Shown here one piece after another: positions 7,920 to 48,587 of a stretch of DNA of 55,674 bases (within the stretch, counting starts at the first letter, position 1; every line of letters begins with the position of its first letter). Made by a program: the position numbers and the translations under genes. The notes beneath the pieces are model-generated. The model saw only the letters and a program-made list of their open reading frames with translations, ran no database searches and was not told the origin of the DNA. This DNA is from a virus (taxonomy: Duplodnaviria; Caudoviricetes). The DNA lies in the IMG/VR virus record IMGVR_UViG_3300032282_003382, positions 1-55,674 of that record. One strand, given 5' to 3'.

Positions 7920-8186
7920 ATGAGAGTATTAAAACGCTGGATTAGAAACTGGCTTAATAATTATGAAGATGTACCTGTGTCTGTTTGTCATGATCAGGAT
8001 ATTCATACAAATACAAAAAAAATTACATTTACTCTGAACAGAGCCATAGGTGGAGCGGTAATACAAAGCCGGATATATGACAGAACTTTAGATGAGGATA
8101 AAACCACGTTGTACATCATTAATGATGAACAGGAATTTACAGAAGCATTCGCCCAAATCGTTAGCCTGGAGTACTTAAAGATATGA
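7920..8186 (+). CDS. Hypothetical protein
   Basis: AAGGAG SD, 88 aa. Confidence 0.7.
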   Translation: MRVLKRWIRNWLNNYEDVPVSVCHDQDIHTNTKKITFTLNRAIGGAVIQSRIYDRTLDEDKTTLYIINDEQEFTEAFAQIVSLEYLKI

Positions 8187-9103
8187 ATATCTGGACTGAA
8201 AAATATCGTCCCAAAGAAGTAGATGATTATGTGTTTCAAAATCCTGAACAAAAAGAACAAGTAAACAAGTGGATTACTGAAGGTAAGGTTCCACATCTGT
8301 TGTTTAGCGGTAGTCCTGGTACAGGTAAAACTACCTTGGCTAAATTGCTAATCCGCCAATTGGGCGTACAGGATCATGATTTACTAGAGATCAATGCTAG
8401 TCGTGAGCGTGGCATTGATACCATACGCAAAACCATTGTTAACTTTAGCAGCACTATGCCCTTTGGTGATTTTAAAATCATCCTCATGGATGAGGCAGAC
8501 TATCTGACTCCTGAAGCACAGGCAAGTATGCGTGGGGTCATGGAAGAATATGCTGAGACTGCTAGGTTTATTTTAACTTGCAACTATCCCAATAAAATTA
8601 TCCCGGCATTACACAGTCGTTGTCAGGGCTTCCATATTAATAACCTGGACCATACAGAGTTTACAGCTAGGATAGCAACTATCCTGGTAACTGAAAGCAT
8701 TGAGTTTGATCTGGATGTGTTAGACACCTTTGTCAAGGCAACCTACCCAGACTTGCGTAAATGTCTGAACTCTGTGCAACAAAGCATAGCCAATAATAAA
8801 CTCCTAGAGCCTAGTGCATCTAATGCAGGATCCCATGATTATAGACTAGACGCTGTGGAACTATTTAAACATGGTAAAACCCGCGAAGCTCGTAAGTTAA
8901 TTTGCAGTCAGGCTCGTGCAGACGAGATGGATGAATTTTTCAGATGGTGTTATGATAACCTTAGCCTGTTTAGTAAAACAGAACAGGGCCAGGACAGAGC
9001 CATAACTATTATTAAAAATGCACTAGTTAGTCATAGTCAGGTATCAGATTTTGAAATTAACATTGCAGCTATGCTAGTAGAATTATCACAAATTGGAGAA
9101 TAA
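8183..9103 (+). CDS. Clamp loader AAA+ subunit (T4 gp44 / RFC-small-like)
   Basis: WTEKYRP, GSPGTGKTT, EINAS, DEAD, SRC motifs. Confidence 0.95.
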   Translation: MNIWTEKYRPKEVDDYVFQNPEQKEQVNKWITEGKVPHLLFSGSPGTGKTTLAKLLIRQLGVQDHDLLEINASRERGIDTIRKTIVNFSSTMPFGDFKIILMDEADYLTPEAQASMRGVMEEYAETARFILTCNYPNKIIPALHSRCQGFHINNLDHTEFTARIATILVTESIEFDLDVLDTFVKATYPDLRKCLNSVQQSIANNKLLEPSASNAGSHDYRLDAVELFKHGKTREARKLICSQARADEMDEFFRWCYDNLSLFSKTEQGQDRAITIIKNALVSHSQVSDFEINIAAMLVELSQIGE

Positions 9104-16804: not shown

Positions 16805-16998
16805 TGGATAACAAAGCATACGAGAAGCATAAAGCAGAACAACCTGTACAAAACCATACAGTAAAAGAAGTAGCTACTATTGATCCCTTTGATGGTGAAC
16901 ATACCAACACAGAGATCGGCATGGTTGTGGTCATAGGTGTATTATTGGTATATGCATTATGGCAAATTGTAAGACCTAAAAAGAAAAAGGATGATTAA
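16804..16998 (+). CDS. Small single-TM membrane protein
   Basis: AGGAGG SD; [16 protein letters not shown] followed by basic tail. Confidence 0.6.
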
Positions 16999-20693: not shown

Positions 20694-20718
20694 ATATTTT
20701 TATAACTAAGGAAACACC

Positions 20719-22977
20719 ATGATCCAATATAACGCTGACATGGAAGCGGTGATTAGCCACGCTGTAGAGTTAGCAGTTAAGTATGAACATGAATATGTAA
20801 TGCTAGAGCATGTATTACTGAGTCTAATAAATCAAAAGAACTTCAGAGTATTACTCATAGATTTTGGTACAGATGTTGAAGGATTGGAAAAGGATCTAGC
20901 AGAATATCTGCTTACTATCCCCAAACATCATCACAAAAAAACATATCAGCCCAAGCGTACTAACAGCCTTGAGAGAATTTTTAACAGGGCATTGACGCAG
21001 GTTTTGTTTAGCGGCCGCAATCATGTATTGCCCATAGACTTGTTCCTGAGCATTAGCATGGAAGAAAAGAGTCATGCTAGTTACTTTATTCAGAAATACA
21101 ACATTGACAAGAAAGAGTTAGTACAATTCTTTAACGAAAACTATTCACAAGTCGCCAGCAACATGAGCGACAATAAGGCCGATTTAATCCTAGATGAGCA
21201 TTGTACTAACCTTAATGAAATGGCCAAGGCAGAGAAAATTGATCCTGTTATTGGGCGTGATAGTGAGCTCATGGAGATTATACAAGTACTAGCCCGTAAA
21301 CAAAAATCCAATGTATTGTTGGTTGGTGATCCTGGTGTAGGTAAGACAGCTATTGTAGAAGGACTTGCACTTAACATTGTGGAAGGTAATGTTCCGCCCC
21401 ACTTAAAAGATCATATTGTATATAACCTAGATGTGGGTAGTATGCTTGCTGGGTCAAAATATCGCGGGGACTTTGAAGAAAAACTTAAAGACACTATCAA
21501 AGCTCTACAAGCTAAAGGAAATTGTATTCTATTCATAGACGAAGCACATCAGATGCATGGTGCTGGCGCTGGCGGTGGGGGTGGTGTAGACTTAGCTAAT
21601 ATGCTTAAACCAGCTTTAGCCAAAGGCGGATTAAAAGTAGTAGCTAGTACAACCTGGGAAGAATATACACAGAGCTTTGAAAAGGATCGCGCACTGATGC
21701 GCCGCTTTTATCGCTTAACTGTGGACGAGCCTACTCCAGATGTTACTAAACAGATCTTGACTAGACTTAAGCCAATTTATGAACAATTCCATGGTGGTAA
21801 GATTCATCTTAAAGCTATCAATGCTGCTGTGGATTATAGTGTAAGGTACATAACTGATAAGAAGTTACCAGACAAGGCCATTGATCTTATTGACATGGCC
21901 TGTGCCAAGGCTAAAATTATTGATCCAAACTTTGTGATTAAGCGTCAGAATATTCTGGAAGTAGTTAGTAAGGCTGCTAAAATTCCATTGGAAAACCTTA
22001 CTAATGAGTCAGAGGCTATTACTGTTAACTTAGAAGATAACATTAAACAAAAACTATATGGCCAGGATGAAGCAATTACACAGGTACTGGAAAAGATTTA
22101 TATTGCCAAGGCTGGCCTTAAGACTATTAATAAACCCATAGGTAACTTTTTATTCCTGGGACCAACAGGAGTAGGTAAAACAGAGCTAGCCAAATTATTG
22201 TCTGAAAACCTGCAGATGAAACTTATTCGTTACGATATGTCAGAGTATCAGGAACGCCATGCCATAGCAAAGCTCATTGGTGCGCCACCAGGATATGTAG
22301 GCTATGAAGATGGTAACCTGGGCGGTGGACTATTGGTATCAGACATTGAAAAGAATCCGCATAGTATAATATTGTTTGACGAAATTGAAAAAGCACATCC
22401 TGATGTTAGTAATGTACTACTTCAGCTCATGGACGAAGGTACAGTTACTAGTTCAAACGGCAAAAAAGTAAGTGCTCGTAATACCATAATAATCCTAACC
22501 AGTAATTTAGGTGCTACCGAGTCTGAAAAGAATACCATAGGATTTGGTGACCTTACTCGCAAGGGTGAGGATGACAAAGCTGTTAAGGAGTTCTTTAAGC
22601 CTGAATTCCGTAACCGGTTGGATGGGGTAGTTAAGTTCAAGAGTCTGGATATGCAGTATGTAAAACGCATTGTGAACAAATTTATTTCTGAGCTTAATGA
22701 AATGCTGTCACAGAAAAACATCAAACTTCGTTGTTCAGAAAAATGTATTGATGCGTTAGCAACCAAGGGCTATGATAAGAAAATGGGGGCTAGGCCGCTT
22801 GCTCGTACCATAGATTCAGAGATCAAAGTACCATTAAGTAAAAAGATCTTGTTTGAGAAAATTCCAGGCAACAGTATTATTGAAGTTGACTATACTGACA
22901 AGTTCCTGTTTAATGTAATACTTTCTACAACTGAAAGGGAAATCCTAAGTGGATCAGAAATTTTGGAACAAACTTAA
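20719..22977 (+). CDS. clpA: ClpA-type Hsp100 AAA+ unfoldase
   Basis: Clp N domain, GDPGVGKT, GPTGVGKT, PPGYVG, IGF loop, GARP; no ClpB M-domain. Confidence 0.93.
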   Translation: MIQYNADMEAVISHAVELAVKYEHEYVMLEHVLLSLINQKNFRVLLIDFGTDVEGLEKDLAEYLLTIPKHHHKKTYQPKRTNSLERIFNRALTQVLFSGRNHVLPIDLFLSISMEEKSHASYFIQKYNIDKKELVQFFNENYSQVASNMSDNKADLILDEHCTNLNEMAKAEKIDPVIGRDSELMEIIQVLARKQKSNVLLVGDPGVGKTAIVEGLALNIVEGNVPPHLKDHIVYNLDVGSMLAGSKYRGDFEEKLKDTIKALQAKGNCILFIDEAHQMHGAGAGGGGGVDLANMLKPALAKGGLKVVASTTWEEYTQSFEKDRALMRRFYRLTVDEPTPDVTKQILTRLKPIYEQFHGGKIHLKAINAAVDYSVRYITDKKLPDKAIDLIDMACAKAKIIDPNFVIKRQNILEVVSKAAKIPLENLTNESEAITVNLEDNIKQKLYGQDEAITQVLEKIYIAKAGLKTINKPIGNFLFLGPTGVGKTELAKLLSENLQMKLIRYDMSEYQERHAIAKLIGAPPGYVGYEDGNLGGGLLVSDIEKNPHSIILFDEIEKAHPDVSNVLLQLMDEGTVTSSNGKKVSARNTIIILTSNLGATESEKNTIGFGDLTRKGEDDKAVKEFFKPEFRNRLDGVVKFKSLDMQYVKRIVNKFISELNEMLSQKNIKLRCSEKCIDALATKGYDKKMGARPLARTIDSEIKVPLSKKILFEKIPGNSIIEVDYTDKFLFNVILSTTEREILSGSEILEQT

Positions 22978-28126: not shown

Positions 28127-28387
28127 ATGAGTAGCAAAATGTTTAATGCAGAACAAAAGGCCAAGCTGAACCAACTAGTAAACGAAGGTATCGGCATCCT
28201 GACCGAAATTGAAGATCTAACTGGTGGACTAAATGACACCATCAAAGCTGTGGCTGAAGAAATGGAAATTAAACCAGCCACACTCAAGAAGGCTATTAAA
28301 ATTGCCCAGAAGTCTAAACTGGGTGAAACTAATGCCGAGCACGACGAACTTGTAACTATTTTGGAAACTGTAGGACGCACTCTTTAA
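28127..28387 (+). CDS. Small dsDNA-binding protein (T4 DsbA/GapR-like)
   Basis: AAGGAG SD; LNDTIKAVAEEMEIKPATLKKAIKIA helical pattern. Confidence 0.6.
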   Translation: MSSKMFNAEQKAKLNQLVNEGIGILTEIEDLTGGLNDTIKAVAEEMEIKPATLKKAIKIAQKSKLGETNAEHDELVTILETVGRTL

Positions 28388-31047
28388 TGAGTTATGTGGA
28401 TGCATTCTGGGAAAGAGATCGTGACCGTATTCACGTCGTAGAGCGTGTGAACGGTGAGCGTGTCTATACAGAATATCCTGCTAACTATGTGTTTTATTAC
28501 AATGATCAAAAGGGTAAGTTCAGAACAATTTATGGTAATACTGTAAGTCGTTTTAGCACCAAGAGCCATAAAGAGTTTCAGAAAGAAGTTCGCATACACG
28601 GCAAAGATAAAACTTGGGAGTCGGATATTAACCCAGTGTTTAGATGCCTGAGCGAAAACTATCTGGGCAAAGATAGTCCAAAACTTCAGACTTGTTTTTT
28701 CGATATTGAAGTGGACTTTGACCCTGTGCGTGGATATAGTCGTCCTGACGATCCATTTAACCCTATTACAGCCATCAGTTTATATTTTGACTGGCTGGAT
28801 AAACTAATCACATTAGTTGTTGCCCCCAAGGGCATGAGCACAGAAACTGCTACAGAAATTTGTGATGGTTTTGAAAACTGTTTCTTGTTTAGTACTGAAG
28901 CAGAACTCTTGGATGCATTCCTGAACTTGATTGATGACGCAGACATCCTAAGTGGTTGGAACTCAGAAGGCTTTGATATTCCCTATACCACCATGCGCAT
29001 CAACAAGGTGCTGAGCAAAGATGACACTCGTAGACTTTGCCTCTGGGGTCAATATCCCAAGCACCATCCTTTTGAGCGTTTTGGATCTCAGGAATTTACC
29101 TTTGATTTAATTGGTCGTGTACACCTGGACTATATGCAGTTATATCGCAAATATAACTATGAAGAACGACATAGTTATGCCTTAGACGCTATTGGTGAAT
29201 ACGAACTAAACGAACGCAAGTTAGCTTATGAAGGTACCCTAGACCAGTTATATAACAAGGACTTTAAAAAGTTTATTGACTATAACCGTCAGGATACCAT
29301 CTTGTTGGCCAAGTTAGATAAGAAGTTAAGATTTTTAGATCTAGCTAATGAACTTGCCCATGATAATACTGTATTACTACAGACTACCATGGGTGCTGTT
29401 GCAGTAACTGAACAAGCAATTATTAATTATGCACATCAACGAAGTTTAATTGTACCTAACCGAAAGGAAAGAATTACAGATGAACAAACTCAAGCCGCAG
29501 GTGCCTATGTTGCTTATCCCAAAAAAGGGCTACACGACTACGTCGGAGCCATCGACATCAACAGTCTGTATCCTTCTGCGATCCGGGCCCTCAACATGGC
29601 GCCAGAAACAATTGTCGGACAACTCAGACAAACAATGACGCAAAACTATCTGGCTGCTAAAATAGCCAGTGGTACTAGCGCATCCGGAGCCTGGGAAGGA
29701 TTGTTTGGTACCCTAGAGTACACCGCAGTTCTAAATCAGGAAGCAGGTACAGAAATTACCATAGACTGGGAGGGCGGTGACTCAGATGTTTATAGTGCTG
29801 CCCAGGTCTGGAAGATGATATTTGATGGTAATAATCCCTGGACACTGAGTGCTAACGGTACCATCTTCAAGTATGATACTGAAGGTACTGTACCTGGACT
29901 GTTGGGTCAATGGTATTCAGAGCGTAAAGAACTTCAGGCAAAAAAGAAGGCTGCCACTGAAGCTTCTGAAATTGCGTTCTGGGATAAGCGTCAATTAGTT
30001 AAAAAAATTAACCTAAACAGTTTGTATGGTGCTATTCTTAACCCAGGGTGTAGGTTCTTTGACATCAGGATTGGACAAAGTACTACTCTGGTTGGTCGTC
30101 AGGTTGCCAAACATATGGCCAGTTTCCTTAATGAACAAGTTACTGGTGAATATAATCACTTAGGTGATTGTATTGTTTATGGTGACACAGACTCATGTTA
30201 CTTTAGTATGTACCCTATATTAAAGGCTGAGATCGAGTCTGGTAAGATGACCTGGAATAAAGATATTTGCATACAGTTATATGATGAAATTGCAGATCAA
30301 CTTAACCAGAGCTTTCCAGCCTTTATGGAACAGAGTTTTCATTGTCCTAGAAAGTTAGGTGAGATCATTAAAGGCGGGCGTGAGCTTATTGGTATTAAAA
30401 GTTTGTTTATTACTAAGAAGCGTTATGCTGTGCTGATTTATGATCAGGAAGGAAAACGACTGGATGTTGATGGTAAACCAGGTAAAGTAAAAGCCATGGG
30501 TCTGGATCTAAAGCGTTCAGATACTCCTAAGGTAGTACAGGATTTTCTAAGTCAGATTTTAATGGAAACGCTCAAAGGTTCTGACAAGGAAATTATCATA
30601 GAGATGATCAAGGACTTCAAACTGTTGTTTGCGCAAAGACCAGCCTGGGAAAAAGGTACGCCTAAGAGAGTAAACAACTTAACTAAGTTTACCAACGAAG
30701 AAAAGCGTTTAGGTAAAGCTAATATGCCTGGACATGTCAGAGCTGCTATGAACTGGAATAACCTGAAGCGTATGAATTCAGACAATTACAGTATGCAAAT
30801 CATGGATGGTATGAAAACTATTGTGTGTAAGCTCAAAGATAATCCCATGGGTTATACTAGTGTTGGTTATCCCACAGATGAAACACATATACCTGAATGG
30901 TTTAAAGAATTACCCTTTGATGACGATGAGATGGAAGCCACTATTGTAGATCAGAAGGTAGACAACTTATTGGGTATCCTAGACTGGGACTTGTTAAATG
31001 CCACTAATAACAAGAGTATGGTAAACGACCTGTTTAGTTTTGATTGA
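28387..31047 (+). CDS. polB: Family B DNA polymerase (gp43-like)
   Basis: Exo FDIE, GWNSEGFDIPY, YNRQD; pol DINSLYPS, KINLNSLYG, YGDTDS, KKRY. Confidence 0.97.
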   Translation: MSYVDAFWERDRDRIHVVERVNGERVYTEYPANYVFYYNDQKGKFRTIYGNTVSRFSTKSHKEFQKEVRIHGKDKTWESDINPVFRCLSENYLGKDSPKLQTCFFDIEVDFDPVRGYSRPDDPFNPITAISLYFDWLDKLITLVVAPKGMSTETATEICDGFENCFLFSTEAELLDAFLNLIDDADILSGWNSEGFDIPYTTMRINKVLSKDDTRRLCLWGQYPKHHPFERFGSQEFTFDLIGRVHLDYMQLYRKYNYEERHSYALDAIGEYELNERKLAYEGTLDQLYNKDFKKFIDYNRQDTILLAKLDKKLRFLDLANELAHDNTVLLQTTMGAVAVTEQAIINYAHQRSLIVPNRKERITDEQTQAAGAYVAYPKKGLHDYVGAIDINSLYPSAIRALNMAPETIVGQLRQTMTQNYLAAKIASGTSASGAWEGLFGTLEYTAVLNQEAGTEITIDWEGGDSDVYSAAQVWKMIFDGNNPWTLSANGTIFKYDTEGTVPGLLGQWYSERKELQAKKKAATEASEIAFWDKRQLVKKINLNSLYGAILNPGCRFFDIRIGQSTTLVGRQVAKHMASFLNEQVTGEYNHLGDCIVYGDTDSCYFSMYPILKAEIESGKMTWNKDICIQLYDEIADQLNQSFPAFMEQSFHCPRKLGEIIKGGRELIGIKSLFITKKRYAVLIYDQEGKRLDVDGKPGKVKAMGLDLKRSDTPKVVQDFLSQILMETLKGSDKEIIIEMIKDFKLLFAQRPAWEKGTPKRVNNLTKFTNEEKRLGKANMPGHVRAAMNWNNLKRMNSDNYSMQIMDGMKTIVCKLKDNPMGYTSVGYPTDETHIPEWFKELPFDDDEMEATIVDQKVDNLLGILDWDLLNATNNKSMVNDLFSFD

Positions 31048-31053
31048 TACTAT

Positions 31054-32073
31054 ATGCCTTTCGCACCTATAAATGTAAACTTTAGTACGGTATTAAAAGA
31101 GATAAATGTTTTAAAATCGTTGCTTTTAGAAACCCAAACAGTTTTGGATAGGGGAGCAATTCAACTTTTAAATGACAAGGTTTTAAATACAGTAAATCTT
31201 TTAGCATATGGTGAAATATTTGTCAGAAAGACTGAGCTTGAAGAATTGTTTACTAATCAGTTTAATGCGTTTTCAGCAGCTAATGATGCTACAGTTTCGT
31301 TTCTAAAAGAATTGTTAAATGCTAAACAAGATTTACTTAAGCATACAATAGATGTTGTAAAACCTTTAATAGAATTAAAAATTCAAGTAAGCGTTGGTAA
31401 AAACTATACCTACGATAGTATATTAACAAGTTATTTAAAGGACGACATATCATTCAGGGACAAGGTTAAAAATTTATTACACCGAGCTACCGATTTTAAA
31501 TATCCAGCTCTAATTTTAGGTAAAGACTATCTTAACCTTTCAGATTATATAGTGTCCAATGATCCATTATTTGTAATTTTTCCAGAACAAGATGAATCTA
31601 ATTTAGATACCCTTTATCATCCTGTTTATGTTAATAGCATCCGAAAGTATTTTTATAAAAATAATAATGAAAACAAATTGACATTACTACCTGAAAACCA
31701 ATTTGGTATTATAGTATCTAATGTTTATGAAGATACTCTACCAGATGCTAAAATAGTTGATCATTTCAAAAGTATTAAAAATTTACTCAGACCTGGCGGA
31801 TCTTTCTTTTTTACTTTTTTTGATTATACTAATGTTGCTAGTCTTGAATTAGTGGAAAAAATTACTGAATTTGGAAATCAATTAATGGAGCCTAATATAG
31901 TCCTGCCGCCTATAAGATTTTATGATGATTACAAGCAAATCATAGAAGGCCAAGGAATGTACATAGATGGATTTGTTCAGGGCGCCACTCATAATTTAAT
32001 GGTAGTGCGTAAGGATGGAGAACTTAAAACGATTAAAGCTAAAAAAGTAATTGGTGAAATAATTGCAGTATAA
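31054..32073 (+). CDS. Coiled-coil plus degenerate class I SAM-methyltransferase-like protein
   Basis: LPENQFGII...IKNLLRPGGSFFFTF resembles MTase post-II motifs; motif I poorly conserved. Confidence 0.5.
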   Translation: MPFAPINVNFSTVLKEINVLKSLLLETQTVLDRGAIQLLNDKVLNTVNLLAYGEIFVRKTELEELFTNQFNAFSAANDATVSFLKELLNAKQDLLKHTIDVVKPLIELKIQVSVGKNYTYDSILTSYLKDDISFRDKVKNLLHRATDFKYPALILGKDYLNLSDYIVSNDPLFVIFPEQDESNLDTLYHPVYVNSIRKYFYKNNNENKLTLLPENQFGIIVSNVYEDTLPDAKIVDHFKSIKNLLRPGGSFFFTFFDYTNVASLELVEKITEFGNQLMEPNIVLPPIRFYDDYKQIIEGQGMYIDGFVQGATHNLMVVRKDGELKTIKAKKVIGEIIAV

Positions 32074-32075
32074 TG

Positions 32076-32104
32076 TTGCACGATCTAAATAAACATGCTA
32101 TACT
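32076..32104 (+). promoter_or_regulatory. Sigma70-type promoter with nested CTAAATA late-like motif
   Basis: TTGCAC-17 nt-TATACT with extended TG; CTAAATA at 32085. Confidence 0.65.
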
Positions 32105-32125
32105 TAAATCTAACGGAGAAAATTA

Positions 32126-32860
32126 ATGAAAGACAACCTTACAGACCTAGTTAACCATACCCATGTATTGGGCAATGTTAGCTTTGTTAAAATTGTTGGC
32201 ACAGACAAAGAAACTGAATTCCAGAGCGTAGCTGATGACAAATCAGTTATTATTCAGGGTAAGTTTAAGAATGTTATCCCTGAGTTCAATGGCGTATTTG
32301 GTATGCCTAACTTAACCAAACTAAACATCATTCTTAACATTCCTGAGTATGATACCGATGCTAGCATTGTAGTTAATACCCAAACTAAGAATGGTGAAAC
32401 TGTACCTAGCGGATTGCGTTTTGAAAACAAAGCCAGCGACTTTAGAAACGATTATCGTTTCATGAGCACTGAAATTGTAAACGAAAAGCTCAAGGATCTA
32501 AAAGCTAAGACTAGTATTAAGTGGAATGTTAGTGTACAACCTAGCGTAGCAAATATTCAGCGTTTTAAATTCCAGAGCCAAGCAAACACAGAAGAGCCTG
32601 TATTTGTAGCCAAGACTGATGGTAGTAAACTAAAGTTTCACTTTGGTGACCCAAGTAGCATGAACGGTGAGTTTGTGTTTGATAATGGTATTTCAGGAAC
32701 ATTGACCAAGGCCTGGCAATTTCCAGTAGCACCAGTAATCAGTATCCTAAACTTGCTAGGCGATAAGACTTTGCAGATTAGTGATCAGGGTGCTCTACAA
32801 ATTATTGTTGACTCAGGCACAGCAGAATACACCTACACACTACCAGCACAAGTTAAATAA
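32126..32860 (+). CDS. Sliding clamp (gp45/PCNA-like)
   Basis: 244 aa with two-domain beta/alpha pattern ending ISDQGALQIIVDSGTAEYTYTLP; close to the polymerase; clamp loader in the same window. Confidence 0.7.
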   Translation: MKDNLTDLVNHTHVLGNVSFVKIVGTDKETEFQSVADDKSVIIQGKFKNVIPEFNGVFGMPNLTKLNIILNIPEYDTDASIVVNTQTKNGETVPSGLRFENKASDFRNDYRFMSTEIVNEKLKDLKAKTSIKWNVSVQPSVANIQRFKFQSQANTEEPVFVAKTDGSKLKFHFGDPSSMNGEFVFDNGISGTLTKAWQFPVAPVISILNLLGDKTLQISDQGALQIIVDSGTAEYTYTLPAQVK

Positions 32861-34494
32861 TGACCATTGCTAAAGACAATCTGACAGCAAGACAGAAGGA
32901 TTATGCTATCTTCCTTCCAGCTATCTCTGGTTTTTATAGCGGCTATGTAGGCAAACAACGACATGAAACCCATGTAGACCCTGCTCGTATCCCTAGCAGG
33001 TTTGAACACGGCATAGAAGGTCTTAACTTCCTAAATCCTGAGCAGGCTTACTTCCCATATCGTTGGGGCCTATATAGTGCTGGCCATGCTAACCTAGATA
33101 CATCTAAGTTTGATGCATCTGAGGATATGATTCGTAATCGTGACAAGGATAGTTTTATTCTTGGTGACTCAGGTGGTTTCCAGATTGGTAAAGGCGTCTG
33201 GGAAGGTGATTGGAGAGCTGGTTCTGGTTGTGCCAAGGCGCATAAAAAGCGTACACAAGTTCTGGACTGGATGGAAAGTTACATGAACTATGGTATGACC
33301 CTAGACGTGCCCGGTTGGGTAGGGCGTACCCCCGCAGGTGTTGCTGCTACTAAGATTAGCAACTATGGCGAAGCTGTTGAAGCCACAAAGTTTAACTTTG
33401 AATATTGGTTAAGGAATCGTAAAGGTAACTGTAAGTTTTTAACTGTGCTACAGGGAGACAACCATAAAGAAGCTGACGAGTGGTACAATGAGATGAAGAA
33501 GTTTTGTGACCCTAAAGTATATCCCAACGATCACTTCAATGGTTGGGCCATGGGATCACAAAATAAATGCGATGCTCATTTAGTAGTAAAGCGGTTAGTA
33601 ACCATGATTTATGATGGATTGTTGGAAACTGGCAAACAGGACTGGATTCACTATTTGGGTACTAGTAAGTTAGAATGGGCTATGATGTTTACAGATATAC
33701 AAAGAGCCATACGCAAGTATCATAATCCTAACTTTACTATTAGCTTTGACTGTGCTAGTCCATTCTTAGCTACTGCTAATGGTCAGGTCTATAACGAAAA
33801 TAGACTAGATAATCGTGGTAAGTGGGCTTACAAGATGATTAAATGTGTAGACGATAAAAAGTATGCTCGTGATAGTCGTATGTTCAGAGATGCTGTTATC
33901 CAGGATGGTATCTACAAGAACTTTATTGATAGTCCTATAATGCAGCGTACTGAGATCAAAGATATTTGCATCTATGGTGCAGGTGTACGCAAGACCGATG
34001 CTGAACTTGGTGGTACTAAGTTTAATGTTAATAACGATGATCATTATCATGTTAAGCCAGATCGTAATAAGATTAATAAAGTAGGACGCACTAGTTGGGA
34101 CAGTTTTAGCTATGCTATCTTAATGGGCCATAACATTCATGCGCACATTAGATCTGTGCAGGATGGTAACGATCTGTATGACAGTGGTGTTATTCCAGCA
34201 GCTCTGGTAAGAGAACAGACTGACAGAAAATATTTCAGAGACTTAGTAGACTCAATCTTTAGTGCGCCTAGTTATGGTGCAGCCATGGCCATAGTTGATC
34301 ATGATTACAATAGTAAATGGTTCATGGATATTCGTGGCAGTAGTGCAAACGGTTATCTGGGTAAGAATGCCAGAAACGCCAATACTATGTTTGATGAACT
34401 ATTTGACATGCAAACTGGTCCACCAGTAGTAAATGAAGATGGTCTAAACCTTGCAAAACTAGATGCTCTGGAAGAAGCAGAAAAGAAGAAATAA
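32860..34494 (+). CDS. dpdA: TGT-superfamily guanine transglycosylase, DNA-acting DpdA-like
   Basis: LGDSGGFQIG, MTLDVP, VLQG, GWAMG, IHYLG, ISFDCAS; adjacent to replication and folE/que genes. Confidence 0.85.
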   Translation: MTIAKDNLTARQKDYAIFLPAISGFYSGYVGKQRHETHVDPARIPSRFEHGIEGLNFLNPEQAYFPYRWGLYSAGHANLDTSKFDASEDMIRNRDKDSFILGDSGGFQIGKGVWEGDWRAGSGCAKAHKKRTQVLDWMESYMNYGMTLDVPGWVGRTPAGVAATKISNYGEAVEATKFNFEYWLRNRKGNCKFLTVLQGDNHKEADEWYNEMKKFCDPKVYPNDHFNGWAMGSQNKCDAHLVVKRLVTMIYDGLLETGKQDWIHYLGTSKLEWAMMFTDIQRAIRKYHNPNFTISFDCASPFLATANGQVYNENRLDNRGKWAYKMIKCVDDKKYARDSRMFRDAVIQDGIYKNFIDSPIMQRTEIKDICIYGAGVRKTDAELGGTKFNVNNDDHYHVKPDRNKINKVGRTSWDSFSYAILMGHNIHAHIRSVQDGNDLYDSGVIPAALVREQTDRKYFRDLVDSIFSAPSYGAAMAIVDHDYNSKWFMDIRGSSANGYLGKNARNANTMFDELFDMQTGPPVVNEDGLNLAKLDALEEAEKKK

Positions 34495-34534: not shown

Positions 34535-34987
34535 ATGGAACAACATAAACAAGCCATGACAGAACAGCGTCAAAGAATACAGGATCGTGCTACAAAAATG
34601 ATCTGGGTTACCTTTCGCAAGGAAGGTATCCACAAGTATCCAGCAGCAGCTACAGATCCAAGTCTGGCTACAGGTGACGAATATGATGTCAGTTTCTTAG
34701 CTACCCCACATCGTCATATCTTTCATTTTAGAGTAGCCATACAAGTATTTCATGATGACAGAGATATTGAGTTTATTCAGTTTAAGCGTTGGCTGGAAAA
34801 ACTTTATAGTGAAGGTACTCTGCAACTTAACTATAAGAGCTGTGAAATGATTTCAGATGATCTATATCAGATTATCGCAACCAGGTATCCAGACCGTGAC
34901 ATTGAAATTGATGTTGCGGAAGATGGAGAAAACGGTAGTGGTACAAAGTATCTAACGCATTATCCTAACTTAAACATGAAAATATAA
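34535..34987 (+). CDS. dpdL: QueD-paralogous T-fold protein, DpdL-like (putative CDG decarboxylase)
   Basis: LATPHRHIF (LxxxHRHxF), RDIEF, SCEM, EDGENG; lacks the QueD CxxxHG motif. Confidence 0.65.
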   Translation: MEQHKQAMTEQRQRIQDRATKMIWVTFRKEGIHKYPAAATDPSLATGDEYDVSFLATPHRHIFHFRVAIQVFHDDRDIEFIQFKRWLEKLYSEGTLQLNYKSCEMISDDLYQIIATRYPDRDIEIDVAEDGENGSGTKYLTHYPNLNMKI

Positions 34988-34996
34988 GGAATTATC

Positions 34997-35224
34997 ATGG
35001 CTCATCCAGCTTGGCTTAAGAAGTATTTGAAAATGAAACCTGAAGTATCTGACATCTTCACAGACCTAGAAGAATTTAAGGCGTTTTGTGTAAAGTATGG
35101 TAGAGTATTCAGAGAAGCTGATCTATATAATAATCGCAATGAGACTTACCAGGACTTTAACCGCAGCAAAGCCGGCAAGAATGTTAAAAACGGCTGGTCT
35201 GAAGAACTTAAAAAGATGGCATAA
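34997..35224 (+). CDS. Small hypothetical protein in the dpdA operon
   Basis: AAGGA SD; IFTDLEEFKAFCVKYGRVFREADLY. Confidence 0.75.
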   Translation: MAHPAWLKKYLKMKPEVSDIFTDLEEFKAFCVKYGRVFREADLYNNRNETYQDFNRSKAGKNVKNGWSEELKKMA

Positions 35225-36297
35225 TGAATACGATTTATATTGTACCCATTGAACCTATTGATCAAAGGTACACTAAACAATGGTATGAAAATATCCCAGA
35301 ATTGTTTAATACAGCCATTTTTAATAATAAACTAAAATACAAAGTAAAAACACTAGATGGTGTTCAGTTAACTGCTGGTACTACATCTGGTGCATTTTTA
35401 GACTTTGGTGCCACTAATGTTTATAAGGCTAGTCAGACACAGCTCATTAGTGAAATGTTTAGCAGAGGTGAGATTGTAGCAGGAGATAAGTTTTTAGTAA
35501 CTGATGCCTGGAATTTTGTAATCACTGCTATCAGATATATGTCTGACTTGTTAGAGATTCCTGTAGAGATACATGGTATCTGGCATGCAGGTGCTTATGA
35601 CCCAAGTGATATTTTAGGTTATAAAATGTCTAAACCCTGGCCCTGGCATACTGAACTTGGTTGGTTTCATGCTTGTACTACTAACTATTATGCTACTCAT
35701 TTTCATAGAGATATGTTTATGCGTAATTTAGAAATTGACAATGATATCTATGGTTACAAGGCCATAGTAAGCGGACAGCCACATAATCCCATTATTGCTC
35801 AGTGTGAAAAATATGTTTCCAAAACTAAGAAAGAAATGGTTATTTGGCCACATCGTTATAATGATGACAAGCAGCCTAATATCATAGAAGATCTTTCAAA
35901 GCGATTAACTCCAGAAGTAGTTATTACTCAGAAAATGAATCTAAACAAGGATAAGTTTTATGAGACCATGGGTGATGCTAGTGTAGTGTTTAGTTGCAGC
36001 CTACATGAGAACTTGGGTATTAGTCAGATGGAAGGTACTTTGGCTGGAGCCATTCCAGTAGTTCCAGATCGTTGTAGTTACTCAGAAATGTATGTGCCAG
36101 AATTTAAATATCCAAGTATCTGGACCGAAAGTTTCGACAATTATAAGAAATACAAGGCTGATATTATTGACTTTATTTCTGACAAAGTGTACAATAGATC
36201 TAAATATATCACAGCACTAGCATATCAGACAGATATCTTAAAGAACAAATATCTGAATGCTGATGTAATGATTAACAATATTTTAGGATTAAAATGA
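35224..36297 (+). CDS. GT-B (GT4-like) glycosyltransferase resembling GTDC1/QTMAN
   Basis: WPHRYNDDKQP; ASVVFSCSLHENLGISQMEGTLAGAIPVVPDRCSYSEM (ExxG...E motif). Confidence 0.8.
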   Translation: MNTIYIVPIEPIDQRYTKQWYENIPELFNTAIFNNKLKYKVKTLDGVQLTAGTTSGAFLDFGATNVYKASQTQLISEMFSRGEIVAGDKFLVTDAWNFVITAIRYMSDLLEIPVEIHGIWHAGAYDPSDILGYKMSKPWPWHTELGWFHACTTNYYATHFHRDMFMRNLEIDNDIYGYKAIVSGQPHNPIIAQCEKYVSKTKKEMVIWPHRYNDDKQPNIIEDLSKRLTPEVVITQKMNLNKDKFYETMGDASVVFSCSLHENLGISQMEGTLAGAIPVVPDRCSYSEMYVPEFKYPSIWTESFDNYKKYKADIIDFISDKVYNRSKYITALAYQTDILKNKYLNADVMINNILGLK

Positions 36298-37004
36298 CAG
36301 ACACAAGCAAACATCTATCACAAGTATTACGCGAGCGCATGAAGTCCGATGGTAAAAGGTTCTGGGCCGGAGATAACATCAGCGACTACATAGCTGAATC
36401 AGACAAAGAACACTTGATCTCTGAAGCCACAGAAGCATTTGAAAAGGTTCTGGATGTATTACTAATTGATCGCGAAAACGATCCTAACAGTAAAGGCACA
36501 GCCAAACGATTGGCCAAGATGTACTTCAATGAGATTATGTCAGGACGCTATGATCCGGCACCTAATGCTACATCGTTTCCCAACAATAATGATGATGGTG
36601 CTCAACCCTATAACGGTATGATAGTTGTCAGGGCAGAACTAAAGAGTATGTGTAGTCATCATCATCAACCAGTTACTGGTACAGCCTATATTGGTGTTAT
36701 TCCCAATGGCAGAGTAATTGGACTTAGCAAGTATATTAGAATTGCGCAATGGTGTGCTCGCAGAGGTACTTTGCAAGAACAATTATGTAATGATATTGCC
36801 AACAATATTGGTATTGCTACTGGTAGTGGAAATCTTGGTGTATATGTACAAGCTACTCATGGTTGTTGTGAAAACCGTGGTGTAATGGCTCGTAGTAGTC
36901 TTACACAAACCACAGTATTACGTGGTGCATTTAATGACGATCCTGGTACCAAGAAAGAATTTTTCGACAACATTAAACTACAACAAGATTTTGCTCCTCG
37001 TTAA
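36294..37004 (+). CDS. folE: GTP cyclohydrolase I
   Basis: DPN..GTAKRLAKM, SMCSHH, VIGLSK, LQEQL, HGCCENRG. Confidence 0.95.
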   Translation: MTDTSKHLSQVLRERMKSDGKRFWAGDNISDYIAESDKEHLISEATEAFEKVLDVLLIDRENDPNSKGTAKRLAKMYFNEIMSGRYDPAPNATSFPNNNDDGAQPYNGMIVVRAELKSMCSHHHQPVTGTAYIGVIPNGRVIGLSKYIRIAQWCARRGTLQEQLCNDIANNIGIATGSGNLGVYVQATHGCCENRGVMARSSLTQTTVLRGAFNDDPGTKKEFFDNIKLQQDFAPR

Positions 37005-37896: not shown

Positions 37897-38283
37897 ATGA
37901 AACCTGTTTGTGCATATCCATCGTGTAATTCTTTGGTTCATACTGTAGATAGAAAACGAAAGAAACTAAGAACTGTGTGTAAAACTCATCACACAACGAA
38001 AAAAGATTTAGTTAATGCTTGGAAATTATCTAAACAATGTGCCAACAAACATGGTGACATTACTGGTACTCCTTGTCTGGTTACAGATAAATTTACTAAC
38101 CCTTCACACTTGGACATTGATCATGTTGATGGAAATCCGTTTAACAACAACCCAAACAATCATCAAGTCTTGTGTAAGTTATGTCATATAGATAAAACTA
38201 TGAGACGGCAAGATCATATGCGTAGTGCAAAACAGAAATCATTTACAAGCACTGCTGGTAATCTTTTTCACGGAGTAAATTAA
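37897..38283 (+). CDS. HNH endonuclease-like protein
   Basis: LDIDHVDGNPFNNNPNNHQVLCKLCHIDKT. Confidence 0.85.
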   Translation: MKPVCAYPSCNSLVHTVDRKRKKLRTVCKTHHTTKKDLVNAWKLSKQCANKHGDITGTPCLVTDKFTNPSHLDIDHVDGNPFNNNPNNHQVLCKLCHIDKTMRRQDHMRSAKQKSFTSTAGNLFHGVN

Positions 38284-41595: not shown

Positions 41596-41803
41596 ACATA
41601 TCTTTTTTGACATAGATAAACCTTTGACTCCTAATGATAAACACTATACACTAATCTACAACTATACATCGCCCAAAAGACATTGTAGAGTCTGGTATGA
41701 CGTTAGATACAAAGAAGAAGCTTTTGTATTTTGGTTTGCTAACATGAAAAACATTTACAACAATAATTTGAAAGACTATTATGACACAGAAACTAACTAT
41801 TGA
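41579..41803 (+). CDS. Hypothetical protein
   Basis: Fills gap and overlaps both neighbours; start moved to ATG 41579. Confidence 0.45.
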   Translation: MLKKYKHIFFDIDKPLTPNDKHYTLIYNYTSPKRHCRVWYDVRYKEEAFVFWFANMKNIYNNNLKDYYDTETNY

Positions 41804-42281
41804 TCACAAGCAGTTCCAGAGCATTGTAGCTGCAATTTGTAGAGACATTGTTCTGGACGATTGGCGTCCTGATTATATTGTGGGTATTACTCGTGGTGGG
41901 TTACTACCCGCAGTTCTTATAAGTCATTATTTGGATGTACCTATGCACACTCTTAAGGTAAGCCTGCGTGATACTTCTGATACTGAAAGTAATTGCTGGA
42001 TGGCCGAGGATGCGTTCAATGGTAAAAACATTCTGATTGTTGATGATATTAACGATAGTGGTGCTACCATTAATTGGATTATGTCAGACTGGCAAGCCAG
42101 TGCATATCCTAAAGATTTGAAATGGAATGATATCTGGGGTAACAATGTCAGAGTAGCTGTTATTGTAGACAACTTATCAAGCCAGTCTAACCTTAGTGCT
42201 CATTATGTAGGTATGGAAGTAAACAAGGCAGAGAATGATGTCTGGATTGATTTTCCATATGAAGACTGGTGGATGAAATGA
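41781..42281 (+). CDS. Type I (purine) phosphoribosyltransferase, Gpt/Hpt-like
   Basis: IVGITRGGLLPA, ILIVDDINDSGAT (PRPP loop), WIDFPYE. Confidence 0.9.
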   Translation: MTQKLTIDHKQFQSIVAAICRDIVLDDWRPDYIVGITRGGLLPAVLISHYLDVPMHTLKVSLRDTSDTESNCWMAEDAFNGKNILIVDDINDSGATINWIMSDWQASAYPKDLKWNDIWGNNVRVAVIVDNLSSQSNLSAHYVGMEVNKAENDVWIDFPYEDWWMK

Positions 42282-42652
42282 CAGCCCTGATTGATGCTCA
42301 ACTATCAGGATATGCACCCTGGACTGATGAAGTAGAAGAACTATCAGACTTTCATGTAGCTGTATACAAAGATAAATTTGCAGTATCTCCAGGCCATTTA
42401 TTGTTTGTGCCTAGACACAATACTCCAGAAGTTATACAAGATGCGTTCTATAGTGCCTATATGCATGGTTGCCGTTTAAAACTCAGCGAACAATGTGATG
42501 GGTTTAATATAGGCATGAACACTGGAGACGCCGCAGGACAAACAGTTATGTACCCCCATATACATCTAATTCCCAGATACCGAGGTGATGTAGAGAATCC
42601 CCGTGGTGGTGTTCGTAATGTTATACCAGGCAAAGGTGATTACAAAGCATAA
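42278..42652 (+). CDS. HIT family nucleotide hydrolase
   Basis: SPGHLLFVPR, GFNIGMNTGDAAGQTVMYPHIHLIPR (first His replaced by Tyr). Confidence 0.9.
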   Translation: MTALIDAQLSGYAPWTDEVEELSDFHVAVYKDKFAVSPGHLLFVPRHNTPEVIQDAFYSAYMHGCRLKLSEQCDGFNIGMNTGDAAGQTVMYPHIHLIPRYRGDVENPRGGVRNVIPGKGDYKA

Positions 42653-45231: not shown

Positions 45232-45711
45232 ATGGCAAAATACATTTCAACAAAAACTTATAAACAAATTGGCCCAGTGGCCTATCGTCAATGGCGTGCT
45301 GATAGTCATTGCAATCTAGTTCATGGATACGCACTTAGTTTCCACTTTGAATTTGAATGTGATACCCTGGACGCTCGTAATTGGTGCATGGACTTCGGTG
45401 GGCTTCGTCCACTAAAAGATAAACTAGAGGAATGGTTCGACCATACTCTATTGGTTGCACAGGATGATCCTCATCGTGATGCACTACTAAACTTAGGTAA
45501 ACTGGGCATAGCCAAGATCACCGAAGTGGAAAAAACTGGCTGCGAAGGCTTGGCTGACTTCCTGTACGAATATATCAACACCATATTCTTCCCCATGTAT
45601 GGAACAGAAGAAGCCAAGCGTGTGTGGTGTTGCAAAGTAGAAGTCAGAGAGACCGATGCTAACATGGCCATGCGTGTGGGTCATAGAGAAGACAACGAGT
45701 TTAGTGATTAA
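45232..45711 (+). CDS. queD: 6-carboxy-5,6,7,8-tetrahydropterin synthase
   Basis: HCNLVHGY, MDFG, FDHT, GCEGLA, VEVRET. Confidence 0.9.
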   Translation: MAKYISTKTYKQIGPVAYRQWRADSHCNLVHGYALSFHFEFECDTLDARNWCMDFGGLRPLKDKLEEWFDHTLLVAQDDPHRDALLNLGKLGIAKITEVEKTGCEGLADFLYEYINTIFFPMYGTEEAKRVWCCKVEVRETDANMAMRVGHREDNEFSD

Positions 45712-46594: not shown

Positions 46595-47206
46595 ATGTTA
46601 GATAAGTTATTACCTGGTATTGATAAAGCTCTAGCTACTAAGCTAGTGATTTTTCATACCTTCATTATTGCACTAAGTAATTACCTGGTAAGCATGAAGT
46701 TTGAGTTATTGGGATTCCCACTAACTTACGCTGCATTCACCTTCCCACTAGTCGTCGTTGCAACTGACTTGACTGTTAGGATGGTAGGTAAGAGCCTGGG
46801 CAGAGCAGTAGTAGGACTTAGTTTTATCCCAGCAATTTGTGCCAGTATCTGGGTAGTTATAGCGTCTGGTGCTCCAGAAAGCGTTGCACTTAGAATTGGT
46901 GTTGCTAGTGGTGTAGCATACCTAATCAGTACATTGCTTGATGTTTATGTGTTCCAGTGGTTCAGAGAGAAGTATAGCTCTTGGTGGATTGCACCAACCC
47001 TGAGTAGTGTAGTTACTAGCATTATTGATACCTACGCATTCTTTGGTACGGCGTTCCATAATAGTGCCAACGAGTTTATGGCAGCAAACTGGCAAGTAGT
47101 AGCTACTAACCAGATCATTACTAAGATTGTTGTTAGCTTACTTGTTATTCTGCCAGCTTATGGTGTATTGCTCAATTATTTGCAAAAGAAGATTGAAGCT
47201 GAATAA
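46595..47206 (+). CDS. yhhQ: Queuosine-precursor (preQ0/preQ1) transporter, YhhQ/VUT family
   Basis: IIALSNYLV, AFTFPLVVVATDLTVRMVG, RIGVAS..AY, LLDVYVF, IDTYAFF..AF, LPAYGVLL. Confidence 0.9.
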   Translation: MLDKLLPGIDKALATKLVIFHTFIIALSNYLVSMKFELLGFPLTYAAFTFPLVVVATDLTVRMVGKSLGRAVVGLSFIPAICASIWVVIASGAPESVALRIGVASGVAYLISTLLDVYVFQWFREKYSSWWIAPTLSSVVTSIIDTYAFFGTAFHNSANEFMAANWQVVATNQIITKIVVSLLVILPAYGVLLNYLQKKIEAE

Positions 47207-47411: not shown

Positions 47412-47746
47412 AAGCACAAAAACCAGCCGAGGGAATCCTCAAACAACATGATTGGGGCAAATCTAAGGTCTATCAGGTCATCTGCGATTGTGGCCAATCT
47501 GACCACACCCACACAGTATGGGTAGAAGCAGATGATTGTAATGTATCTGTACAAATTTATGTAGATGTTAAAAGCCCATCTTGGAGCATGAATCGTTTTA
47601 AACAAATCTGGACATTGTTAACTACAGGTTATCTACGGCACGAAACTGCGTTATCCATGTCTAATCAACAAGCTCTGAATTATGCAGAAGCATTAAAGTC
47701 TGCCATCAAAGATGTTGAAAACTTTAGAAAGAAAACCAATGTCTAA
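47408..47746 (+). CDS. Hypothetical protein
   Basis: MKAQKPAEGIL, CDCG..DH, QQALNYA; ATGA overlap. Confidence 0.7.
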   Translation: MKAQKPAEGILKQHDWGKSKVYQVICDCGQSDHTHTVWVEADDCNVSVQIYVDVKSPSWSMNRFKQIWTLLTTGYLRHETALSMSNQQALNYAEALKSAIKDVENFRKKTNV

Positions 47747-48587
47747 AATCAAAGTAGCAGAACTATTTTATAGCATACAAGGAGAAGGTAGGTACATGGG
47801 TGTGCCTAGTGTGTTCTTGCGTGTATTTGGATGTAACTTTAAATGTGCCGGTTTTGGCATGCCCCGAGGAGAATTCAGCAATGAAGCTATCAATATTGAC
47901 CCTGCTAACTATACCGACTACAAATCCCTTCCTCTTGTTAGCACAGGTTGTGATAGTTACGCTAGTTGGGATCCTCGCTTTAAGCATCTATCTCCCGTTT
48001 TGGATACTGATGCGATTGCCCTTGCTATTGTGGATACGCTACCGCACAAGGAATGGCGCGACGAACATCTGGTGATCACAGGAGGTGAACCTTTATTAGG
48101 ATGGCAACGAGCATATCCAGACTTGCTGCGGCATCCTAAAATGGCAGATCTTAAAGAGATCACTTTCGAAACTAACGGTACTCAACCACTAACTGATGAG
48201 CTGGCTGATTACTTGCTAGAATGGTTGATGCCACATCCAGATTATACCAGAGAAATCACATTCAGTGTTAGTGCAAAACTACCATGCTCAGGTGAGAAGT
48301 GGTCAGATGCCATTAAGCCCGAGGTAGTAGCAGGTTATCAGCAGCTAGGTTATGTGTATCTCAAGTTTGTGGTGGCCACAGATCGTGATGTGCAAGATGC
48401 TATCATGGCCGCGCATGAGTTCAAGGAGGCAGGTGTGGATGTGCCTGTGTATCTAATGCCCGTAGGTGGTGTGGAAAGTGTTTATAGTCTGAACAATCGC
48501 ACAGTGGCACACAAGGCCATGGAACTGGGTTATCGTTACAGCGATAGACTTCAGGTCCCTTTGTTTAAAAATGCCTGGGGTACTTGA
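47739..48587 (+). CDS. queE: 7-carboxy-7-deazaguanine synthase
   Basis: ELFYSIQGEG, FLRVFGCNFKC...GCDS, ITGGEP, ETNGT, SVSAKL, YLMP, RLQV. Confidence 0.92.
   Translation: MSKIKVAELFYSIQGEGRYMGVPSVFLRVFGCNFKCAGFGMPRGEFSNEAINIDPANYTDYKSLPLVSTGCDSYASWDPRFKHLSPVLDTDAIALAIVDTLPHKEWRDEHLVITGGEPLLGWQRAYPDLLRHPKMADLKEITFETNGTQPLTDELADYLLEWLMPHPDYTREITFSVSAKLPCSGEKWSDAIKPEVVAGYQQLGYVYLKFVVATDRDVQDAIMAAHEFKEAGVDVPVYLMPVGGVESVYSLNNRTVAHKAMELGYRYSDRLQVPLFKNAWGT

Follow-up and report, generated by a model that had tools for sequence, protein, structure and literature searches.

In the window, a 55,674-nucleotide stretch of phage DNA (IMG/VR record IMGVR_UViG_3300032282_003382, positions 1 to 55,674; a 55.7-kb piece of an incomplete contig), a gene for a PCNA-like sliding clamp overlaps the gene for a protein of 544 amino acids (aa), which according to its model and to profile alignments is a remote DpdA-like relative of the TGT fold. 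It is probable that this enzyme is tethered to the clamp of the phage by a short motif in its tail, in the way presumed for the family B DNA polymerase encoded upstream. Relatives of the enzyme and the clamp were also sought beyond the window, and 80 related loci from viral contigs served as the comparison set, to which the gene counts given below refer. The source of the window is a jumbo-type phage related to PA5oct and to Vibrio phage 2.275.O. The nearest cultured relatives of the clamp and enzyme genes are found in jumbo phages, namely in PA5oct-like Pseudomonas phages (identity of 40% for the enzyme and 32% for the clamp), Sinorhizobium phage Phosso and Vibrio phage 2.275.O, with an overall identity of the enzyme to those of PA5oct, 2.275.O and Phosso of 27-40%.

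The polymerase (28387-31047) ends with NNKSMVNDLFSFD, encoded by nucleotides (nt) 31006-31044, and the enzyme comprises the sequence NANTMFDELFD as residues 506-516 (nt 34375-34407). The enzyme segment T-M-F-D-E-L-F-D lies in register with S-M-V-N-D-L-F-S-F-D of the polymerase. In the monomer model of the enzyme, the predicted local distance difference test (pLDDT) values are below 50 at residues 496-510, followed by a short helix at 511-514, and a hydrophobic-acidic motif in a disordered tail is common to the enzyme and its cognate polymerase end. The pattern [ST]-x(0,1)-hydrophobic-x-x-L-F-[DESTQ] was composed after both instances were known. Of the 114 plus-strand open reading frames (ORFs) in the window that reach 40 aa, it matched three, which were the polymerase end, the enzyme tail and residue 60 of ORF 31054-32073. 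Since the pattern was derived from the data, these counts show its specificity and give no unbiased P value. The match at residue 60 lies in a region that is not aligned in the homologues of this ORF and was treated as a chance occurrence.

The original prediction, made from the sequence alone, had named the polymerase end, the enzyme motif, the TAATG overlap at 32858-62 and the ending STAGNLF of an HNH protein, and all four were found in place. The HNH tail had been regarded as a weaker clamp motif, a claim that was dropped. At the third position ahead of L-F this tail lacks a hydrophobic residue, which places it outside the pattern, and none of the 80 loci contains a homologue of the HNH gene.

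The enzyme motif could be located in 74 of the 80 related loci. For a comparison of both tails, 69 genomes with a complete polymerase end were used, in 63 of which the enzyme motif was located. The polymerase 9-mer [NST]-T-F-x-x-L-F-[DSE]-F showed the F at position 3 in 66 of 69 genomes and the L-F likewise in 66, while the enzyme motif T-x-F-x-x-L-F-[DE] showed the T in 56, the F in 60, the L-F in 56 and an acidic next residue in 58 of 63. In all 63 genomes the two 9-mers were in the same register. The cultured relatives showed similar pairs, with HFDSLFGW in the polymerase and SFNSLFDV in the enzyme of PA5oct, the polymerase end NNTDLFDW and the enzyme end NNNDLFGW in Vibrio phage 2.275.O, and the polymerase end FNDLFTF and the enzyme end IVEGLF in Phosso. 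With a looser pattern, 62 matches were obtained in 80 enzyme ORFs and 99 in 76 polymerase ORFs of the 80 loci, compared to 36 matches in 1034 ORFs outside the seven query families, only 7 of which were situated in the last 40 residues. The enzyme family was sampled by 112 full-length cluster representatives, in 33 of which [LMF]F occurred within the last 6 residues, compared to 17 of 941 control ORFs, and an internal copy of the motif was present in 21, compared to 38 of the control ORFs. Terminal and near-terminal copies combined amounted to 54 of 112 and 55 of 941, respectively. The sequence around the enzyme motif varies in composition and length. The original expectation of a conserved motif was borne out by these data, as the motif is retained within the enzyme family and agrees with the tail of the cognate polymerase.

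In an alignment of 79 close relatives, the columns preceding and opening the enzyme motif are highly conserved, with G493 and G498 in 79 sequences each, G501 in 78, N506 in 77 and T509 in 75, while its hydrophobic columns are occupied by F511 in 45, L514 in 55 and F515 in 63 sequences. Downstream, a second conserved acidic motif was found at the C-terminus of the enzyme, for which the family consensus is D-D-S-G-L-D-E-x-x-L-D-x-L-E. The monomer model contains a confident helix at 531-543, and L534 and E538 were present in 72 and 74 of the 79 sequences. When the 80 loci were scanned with a pattern for this second motif, 41 ORFs matched, all of them enzyme ORFs. Five of the 74 enzyme ORFs with a located first motif end at most 4 residues past it, so that they do not contain the second one. 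Among close relatives of the enzyme (P0002-P0024), one subclade showed a degenerate first motif, with Ala in place of F511 and His in place of L514, and a second copy of the form hydrophobic-x-S-x-L-F-E-G-[DE] situated 20-40 residues downstream, which looks like motif turnover. In two further loci (L047, 10512-11087; L060, 8931-9506) an ORF of 191 aa between the enzyme gene and the following 150-aa gene ends with S-T-Y-[VT]-S-L-F-E-E-T-V and could encode a further clamp client.

Based on its predicted structure, ORF 32126-32860 is the PCNA-like sliding clamp of the phage. The AlphaFold2 (AF2) model, calculated on 45 relatives, reached a pLDDT of 92.4, and a Foldseek comparison with the PDB gave yeast and human PCNA as top matches (E 2e-11, TM score 0.65-0.72). 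The assignment holds because of these two results, and the clamp fold on which the original prediction had depended was confirmed by them. No match was obtained in Pfam or NCBIfam, the matching PHROGs family (phrog_12062) is of unknown function, and sequence searches against the PDB gave chance-level matches only. Both the clamp and the enzyme were identified by fold comparison, since the sequence libraries name neither. Homologues of the clamp in the phages vB_Pa-PAC2 and Phosso carry the annotations PCNA and sliding clamp beta, and more distant homologues occur in further large phages. A clamp fold with two domains was found by AF2 and Foldseek, and a cognate RFC-like loader is encoded in the window (ORF 8183-9103). 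In the clamp sequences, lysine predominates at K121, K123, K126 and K128 (in 32 to 43 of the 45 sequences at each position), and L239-P240-A241 hardly varies.

The complex of three clamp copies with residues 493-527 of the enzyme tail was predicted in three runs and alongside three controls. For the enzyme tail, scores of 0.68, 0.63 and 0.53 (median 0.63) were obtained, while all three controls remained at 0.00. In a calibration, 58 of 80 solved complexes and 2 of 110 mismatched pairs attained this mark. The runs agreed in at least 54% of the contacts and the pLDDT of the partner was at least 49. The predicted interface comprises residues 504-511 and 513-523 of the tail and residues 35-42, 114-131, 200, 221-223 and 239-244 of the clamp. 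Within it, T509, M510, F511, L514 and F515 contact residues 39-42, 131, 221-223 and 239-242 of the clamp, the contacts of residues 509-515 being those with the lowest error, and residues 516-523 are predicted to run along the connector loop (119-129). The contacts with the connector loop and with the C-terminus of the clamp match what we take to be the canonical mode of PCNA-interacting peptides (PIP), and the predicted pose is this canonical clamp-peptide mode, with the motif in the pocket under the interdomain connector loop. The modelling of a clamp trimer with the enzyme peptide, which had been proposed along with the original prediction, thus placed the motif in the expected pocket, with a median of 0.63 compared to a best control of 0.00. 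These predictions support, and do not show, a binding of the enzyme tail to the clamp via the motif.

For the 544-aa protein itself, an AF2 model based on 74 relatives reached a pLDDT of 93.1. All matches of this model in the PDB obtained with Foldseek were TGT structures (best E 1.9e-6), and a superposition with the TGT of T. maritima (2ash_A) by VIA-align gave a Z of 19.7 and a root-mean-square deviation of 4.2 with 305 residues aligned. Profile alignment by hhalign with E. coli Tgt resulted in a probability of 88.9% and placed D103, D149 and D297 of the enzyme, situated in the motifs GDSGGFQ, LD and FDxASP, on D89, D143 and D264, which we take to be catalytic or substrate-binding aspartates of E. 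coli Tgt. All three residues are invariant in 74 sequences of the family. The enzyme had no match in Pfam, PHROGs, NCBIfam or PADLOC, nor in the PDB by single sequence or profile. Among its distant relatives, 3 of 33 gave sub-threshold matches to Pfam TGT with E values from 0.009 to 0.09, and in a feature search of the Atlas with the enzyme a PF23859 cluster appeared only at rank 16 with a score of 0.89. The nearest relative among those tested was DpdA2 of Vibrio phage nt-1 (YP_008125322), to which the family profile aligned with a probability of 94.1% (E 1.3e-7) over 173 columns. For gp042 of Cellulophaga phage phiST, which is taken as DpdA3 from its gene order, a probability of 84% was obtained over 87 columns only. 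The best structural matches in BFVD include proteins of phage Motura annotated as transglycosylases and an nt-1 protein (E 3e-9). The family is large, as 7913 of 8000 scored candidates matched at an E value of at most 0.001, which corresponds to no fewer than 7913 clusters when grouped at 90% identity; at 50% identity, the matching representatives numbered 880. Nearly all members are without annotation, and any name given in the source is 'hypothetical protein'. Judged by sequence profiles and model, the protein is a remote DpdA-like relative of the TGT fold that forms a separate branch nearest to DpdA2 and belongs to no named subfamily.

Most likely, the enzyme has a DpdA-like chemistry and replaces guanine in DNA by a 7-deazaguanine base; this assignment is based on the predicted fold, the aligned catalytic aspartates and the company of FolE, QueD, QueE and YhhQ. 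The window encodes FolE, QueD-like, QueE-like and YhhQ-type proteins, that is, genes for the synthesis or uptake of 7-deazaguanines together with the enzyme. A FolE homologue was found downstream of the enzyme in 36 of the 80 loci; beside the enzyme homologue, a gene for QueE is present in PA5oct and genes for QueF, a QueC-type protein and FolE in 2.275.O. Among the deazaguanine genes of the window, a purine phosphoribosyltransferase and a HIT-family protein are encoded at 41781-42652, which together could turn a deazapurine base into a nucleotide. The DNA of PA5oct is resistant to several restriction enzymes, which was read by the authors as modified G (PMC12191111). In the available text of this source, QueE and PTPS of PA5oct are named and a transglycosylase is not, and a system for synthesis/incorporation of deazaguanine in PA5oct is mentioned elsewhere (PMC7824862).

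If the tether exists, a mechanism can be outlined as follows. The body of the enzyme (about residues 1-490) would be followed by a flexible tail carrying T509-M-F-D-E-L-F-D516, a peptide of the same kind as that of the polymerase, and both peptides would insert into the hydrophobic pocket beneath the interdomain connector loop of the clamp. A single clamp trimer could in this way hold polymerase and transglycosylase at once or one after the other. The tether would hold the enzyme on DNA freshly loaded by the clamp loader of the phage, where it would scan in one dimension, and base exchange would be coupled in time and place to the replication of the phage. A confinement of the modification to newly made phage DNA, as proposed originally, is purely inferred. 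The proposal that the enzyme rides the clamp stands in so far as the clamp fold, the conservation of the motif and the docking prediction did not refute it, and the support for binding as such comes from modelling.

A number of findings weigh against this interpretation, some of which concern the tail and others the chemistry. The motif of the window enzyme is internal, 28 residues from the C-terminus, while motifs of the T4 type are C-terminal. The co-variation of both tails is anecdotal, since both cores are non-Leu in 2 loci (L002, L034), with a hypergeometric P of 0.03 that ignores relatedness. The PolB of nt-1 ends with LESFFG, and the DpdA2 of this phage has no tail resembling that end, so that the tether is not general to phage DpdA enzymes. 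The positive outcome of the docking may reflect memory, because many PCNA-peptide complexes have been solved, and the docking was done with own alignments and three clamp copies, unlike the calibration. F511, L514 and F515 of the motif are less conserved than N506 and T509, and due to this weaker hydrophobic conservation the stretch may have a further or a different role. The conservation of the pocket residues exceeds that of the remaining clamp only modestly, a random set having matched the core set in 505 of 10000 draws. The latter two findings would also fit a motif that binds another replisome hub (single-strand-binding protein, helicase or polymerase) or acts as an intramolecular lid of the active site, in which case the tails would be alike through a shared hydrophobic-acidic style, without sharing a receptor. 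The Gly-rich stretch at 493-501, whose conservation suggests a further function, and the second acidic motif, to which no partner is assigned, point in the same direction. On the other hand, the enzyme motif is in register with the terminal peptide of the polymerase in 63 genomes, both proteins of 2.275.O end in a nearly identical octapeptide, 78 of 80 loci have the clamp gene as the next gene upstream and the docking occurred in the canonical pocket with all controls at 0.00, while the low pLDDT of residues 496-510 means that they are not modelled as packed on the enzyme body. Such another partner or a lid is therefore regarded as unlikely. That the resemblance of the tails is a functionless chance match of short hydrophobic-acidic strings is hardly credible. 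Indeed, the motifs are short and the search patterns were written after they had been seen, but the presence of the enzyme motif in 74 of 80 loci as well as in PA5oct, 2.275.O and Phosso at 27-40% overall identity, the variable flanks of the motif and the excess of terminal or near-terminal copies over the control ORFs already contradict this explanation.

With respect to the chemistry, no TGT or DpdA profile recognised the enzyme (Pfam TGT PF01702 at an E value of at most 0.01, DpdA PF23859, NCBIfam and the Dpd profiles of PADLOC). The label DpdA given in the original prediction holds in the sense of a remote TGT-fold relative nearest to DpdA2 and has no such profile match behind it. The zinc motif CxCxxC of Tgt (residue 302 of E. 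coli Tgt) is absent from the window protein; C370, H424 and H429 are invariant in its close relatives and might form another site. Finally, no QueC was recognised within the incomplete window contig. The missing profile match and zinc motif would suit a TGT-fold enzyme that acts on tRNA, a free base or a nucleotide, with the modified base entering DNA via the nucleotide pool and the polymerase and the motif serving a nucleotide-synthesis complex at the fork, and the purine phosphoribosyltransferase and the HIT-family protein could make the deazaguanine nucleotide required for it. Such a route appears quite improbable, as 74 family members without exception carry the three catalytic aspartates of base-exchanging TGTs and a clamp tether makes most sense with duplex DNA as substrate. 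Furthermore, the nearest tested relative, nt-1 DpdA2 (hhalign 94%), inserts preQ0 into DNA (PMC6884629, PMC10516641), and all known 7-deazaguanine modifications of DNA are argued to be post-replicative (PMC10516641). Altogether, a DpdA-like enzyme tethered to the clamp remains the interpretation that we prefer. A more far-reaching version of it is offered only tentatively: the family might add a sixth branch, and a very large one, to the TGT enzymes that act on DNA and be a bona fide phage clamp client, in which bases are exchanged on the clamp directly behind the polymerase. Tethering, and not kinetics alone, would then set whether traces or most of the guanines are replaced and also whether the host DNA is spared, the second acidic motif would recruit a further replisome partner, and the clamp would be a tool-belt for hypermodification.

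A comparison with the known DpdA subfamilies shows likenesses as well as differences. DpdA2 of the Vibrio phages nt-1 and VH7D resembles the window enzyme in having a remote TGT fold and adjoining genes of the FolE, QueD and QueE type, and DSGG.Q, the LD aspartate and the ISxD aspartate of nt-1 DpdA2 are aligned with the family. It differs in that only the central 173 columns align and that tblastn finds no connection. The levels of modification by DpdA2 are low (PMC6884629, PMC10516641), while DpdA3 is credited with a complete replacement of G (PMC10516641). Similar to the window enzyme, DpdA3 (Cellulophaga phage phiST, Campylobacter phages) is distantly TGT-like and encoded between genes for deazaguanine synthesis and a polymerase. 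The gp042 of phiST, taken as DpdA3, comprises 259 aa and was equated with CGPG_00065 on the basis of gene order; the BFVD matches include a 259-residue protein of phiST with an E value of 6e-3. In contrast to the window enzyme it has no such tail, and the polymerase of phiST is of the Pol III alpha type. In Vibrio phage vB_VcorM_GR7B (L093, MT366760.1), a 'TGT domain-containing protein' (2117-3733) ends with a lysine-rich tail of about 60 residues that contains no L-F motif and may hold the enzyme on DNA another way; no family B polymerase was found in the GR7B record. The motif as a trait of all DpdA enzymes was therefore rejected, and it is a trait of this enzyme family only, because nt-1 DpdA2, phiST gp042 and the GR7B protein have no such tail.

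The T4 polymerase gp43 ends with ASLDFLFG, the window polymerase with MVNDLFSFD. In T4, gp43, gp55 and gp33 have similar C-termini, hydrophobic as well as acidic, which are interchangeable ligands of the gp45 clamp, an internal clamp-binding segment in a gp55-gp33 fusion is still functional, and the crystal structure of an RB69 clamp-peptide complex is described (PMC2988020). The window phage resembles this system in that a short peptide on a flexible linker is common to polymerase and non-polymerase clients of the clamp. The additional client proposed here differs, being a base-exchanging DNA-modification enzyme and not a polymerase or transcription factor, and unlike in T4 the motif is internal in most members of the family and the clamp has no sequence-level match to any clamp in the PDB.

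Among the eukaryotic clients of PCNA, DNMT1 and UNG2 contain PIP boxes and act on newly made DNA. The spacing of the PIP box is hydrophobic-x-x-aromatic-aromatic, and the consensus begins with Gln. The window enzyme resembles these clients as a DNA-modifying or base-removing enzyme that would be tethered to a clamp by a short motif, and it differs from them in the missing leading Gln, the phage host and the exchange of a base; a homology of the enzymes is not implied. Full-text searches combining DpdA or deazaguanine with clamp or PCNA terms gave no paper linking DpdA to a clamp. The word 'clamp' is absent from the available text of PMC10516641 and PMC6884629, and that of PMC7824862 links deazaguanine and PCNA nowhere. 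Both ingredients are of known kinds, and their combination, a clamp-tethered base-exchange enzyme for phage DNA, appears not to be in print in the literature searched.

The 7-deazaguanine modifications of phage DNA defeat restriction enzymes, and their levels, which range from below 0.1% of the guanines up to complete replacement, depend on the DpdA subfamily; the available text of the same source offers no mechanism for this range (PMC10516641). If the enzyme is tethered as proposed, the clamp would provide a concrete mechanism for a base exchange that is dense, timed by replication and selective for the phage, and a DNA-modifying enzyme would join the clients of phage clamps, in parallel to the PCNA-tethered enzymes of eukaryotes. 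Furthermore, uncultured jumbo phages contain a large family of 'hypothetical proteins' for which a probable function is suggested, and a candidate transglycosylase is indicated in PA5oct-like phages, whose DNA appears to carry modified G.

Table 1. Position of the clamp, the enzyme, their sequence elements and further replication and 7-deazaguanine genes in the window.
Feature	Position	Strand	Basis
Family B DNA polymerase, 886 aa	28387..31047	+	Pfam DNA_pol_B 2.5e-34, DNA_pol_B_exo1 8.8e-17; phrog_262 DNA polymerase 6e-189
C-terminal tail of the polymerase, S-M-V-N-D-L-F-S-F-D, presumed clamp-binding peptide	31015..31044	+	sequence
339-aa protein between polymerase and clamp genes, function unknown	31054..32073	+	weak homologue (22-30% identity) in 27/80 loci
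PCNA-fold sliding clamp, 244 aa, two domains	32126..32860	+	AF2 model, Foldseek
Interdomain connector loop of the clamp, residues 114-131	32465..32518	+	interface residues of best complex-prediction run
Other predicted pocket parts of the clamp, residues 35-42 and 239-244	32228..32251; 32840..32857	+	best complex-prediction run
TAATG, clamp stop overlapping the transglycosylase ATG by one base	32858..32862	+	sequence
TGT-fold, DpdA-like putative DNA 7-deazaguanine transglycosylase, 544 aa; body about residues 1-490	32860..34494	+	fold, hhalign
Low-confidence linker of the enzyme, residues 493-508, with conserved G493, G498, G501 and N506	34336..34383	+	pLDDT, column counts
Clamp-binding-like motif of the enzyme, T509-M-F-D-E-L-F-D516	34384..34407	+	sequence, pattern match
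Second conserved acidic C-terminal motif of the enzyme, residues 525-538, function unknown	34432..34473	+	column counts
RFC-like AAA+ clamp-loader subunit	8183..9103	+	Pfam AAA 5.5e-16, DNA_pol3_delta2 2.8e-14, Rad17, RFC1-lid
GTP cyclohydrolase I (FolE), first step of 7-deazaguanine synthesis	36294..37004	+	Pfam 2.5e-38; NCBIfam FolE 2.9e-39
QueD-like 6-carboxytetrahydropterin synthase	45232..45711	+	Pfam PTPS 5.5e-15; NCBIfam QueD 1.1e-8, under curated cut-off
YhhQ-type preQ0/preQ1 transporter	46595..47206	+	Pfam Vut_1 4.9e-22; NCBIfam NF008406 1e-52
QueE-like radical SAM enzyme (7-carboxy-7-deazaguanine synthase)	47712..48587	+	NCBIfam QueE ~1e-11 to 1e-12, N-terminal stretch only, under cut-off; Pfam Radical_SAM 4e-5
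HNH ORF ending STAGNLFHGVN	37897..38283		sequence

The gene order in the 80 loci is polymerase, sometimes the 339-aa gene, clamp, enzyme, 150-aa gene, glycosyltransferase and FolE (Table 1). In 78 of the loci the enzyme gene directly follows the clamp gene, and in 28 of these 78 loci with both genes the two overlap or are at most 5 nt apart. The 339-aa protein (ORF 31054-32073) had no match in Pfam or PHROG. Behind the enzyme, the 150-aa protein (34535-34987; phrog_17812, function unknown) is encoded in 68 of 80 loci and a GT-B-like glycosyltransferase (35224-36297) in 58 of 80; either of them could add a further modification to the inserted base.

In PA5oct (L081, MK797984.1, 605-5831), the polymerase is annotated as two coding sequences that are split by the gene of a 'Hef-like homing endonuclease', and in the metagenomic loci L004, L005, L052 and L061 the polymerase match likewise ends near residue 600 of the query. 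The window also contains an ORF of 179 aa (5728-6267) representing a minimal Pol III alpha fragment, which matches only a short stretch of the NTPase domain (PF07733, 3e-7) and fits the split, minimal Pol III alpha that occurs beside PolB in one group of jumbo phages (PMC7824862). Finally, a set of host-like genes was observed at 10360-11316, 19818-22977 and 16991-18580, comprising a DctP-family solute-binding protein, DnaJ, a ClpB-like double AAA+ chaperone and a collagen-repeat protein with a ConA-like lectin/glucanase (Laminin_G_3) domain.

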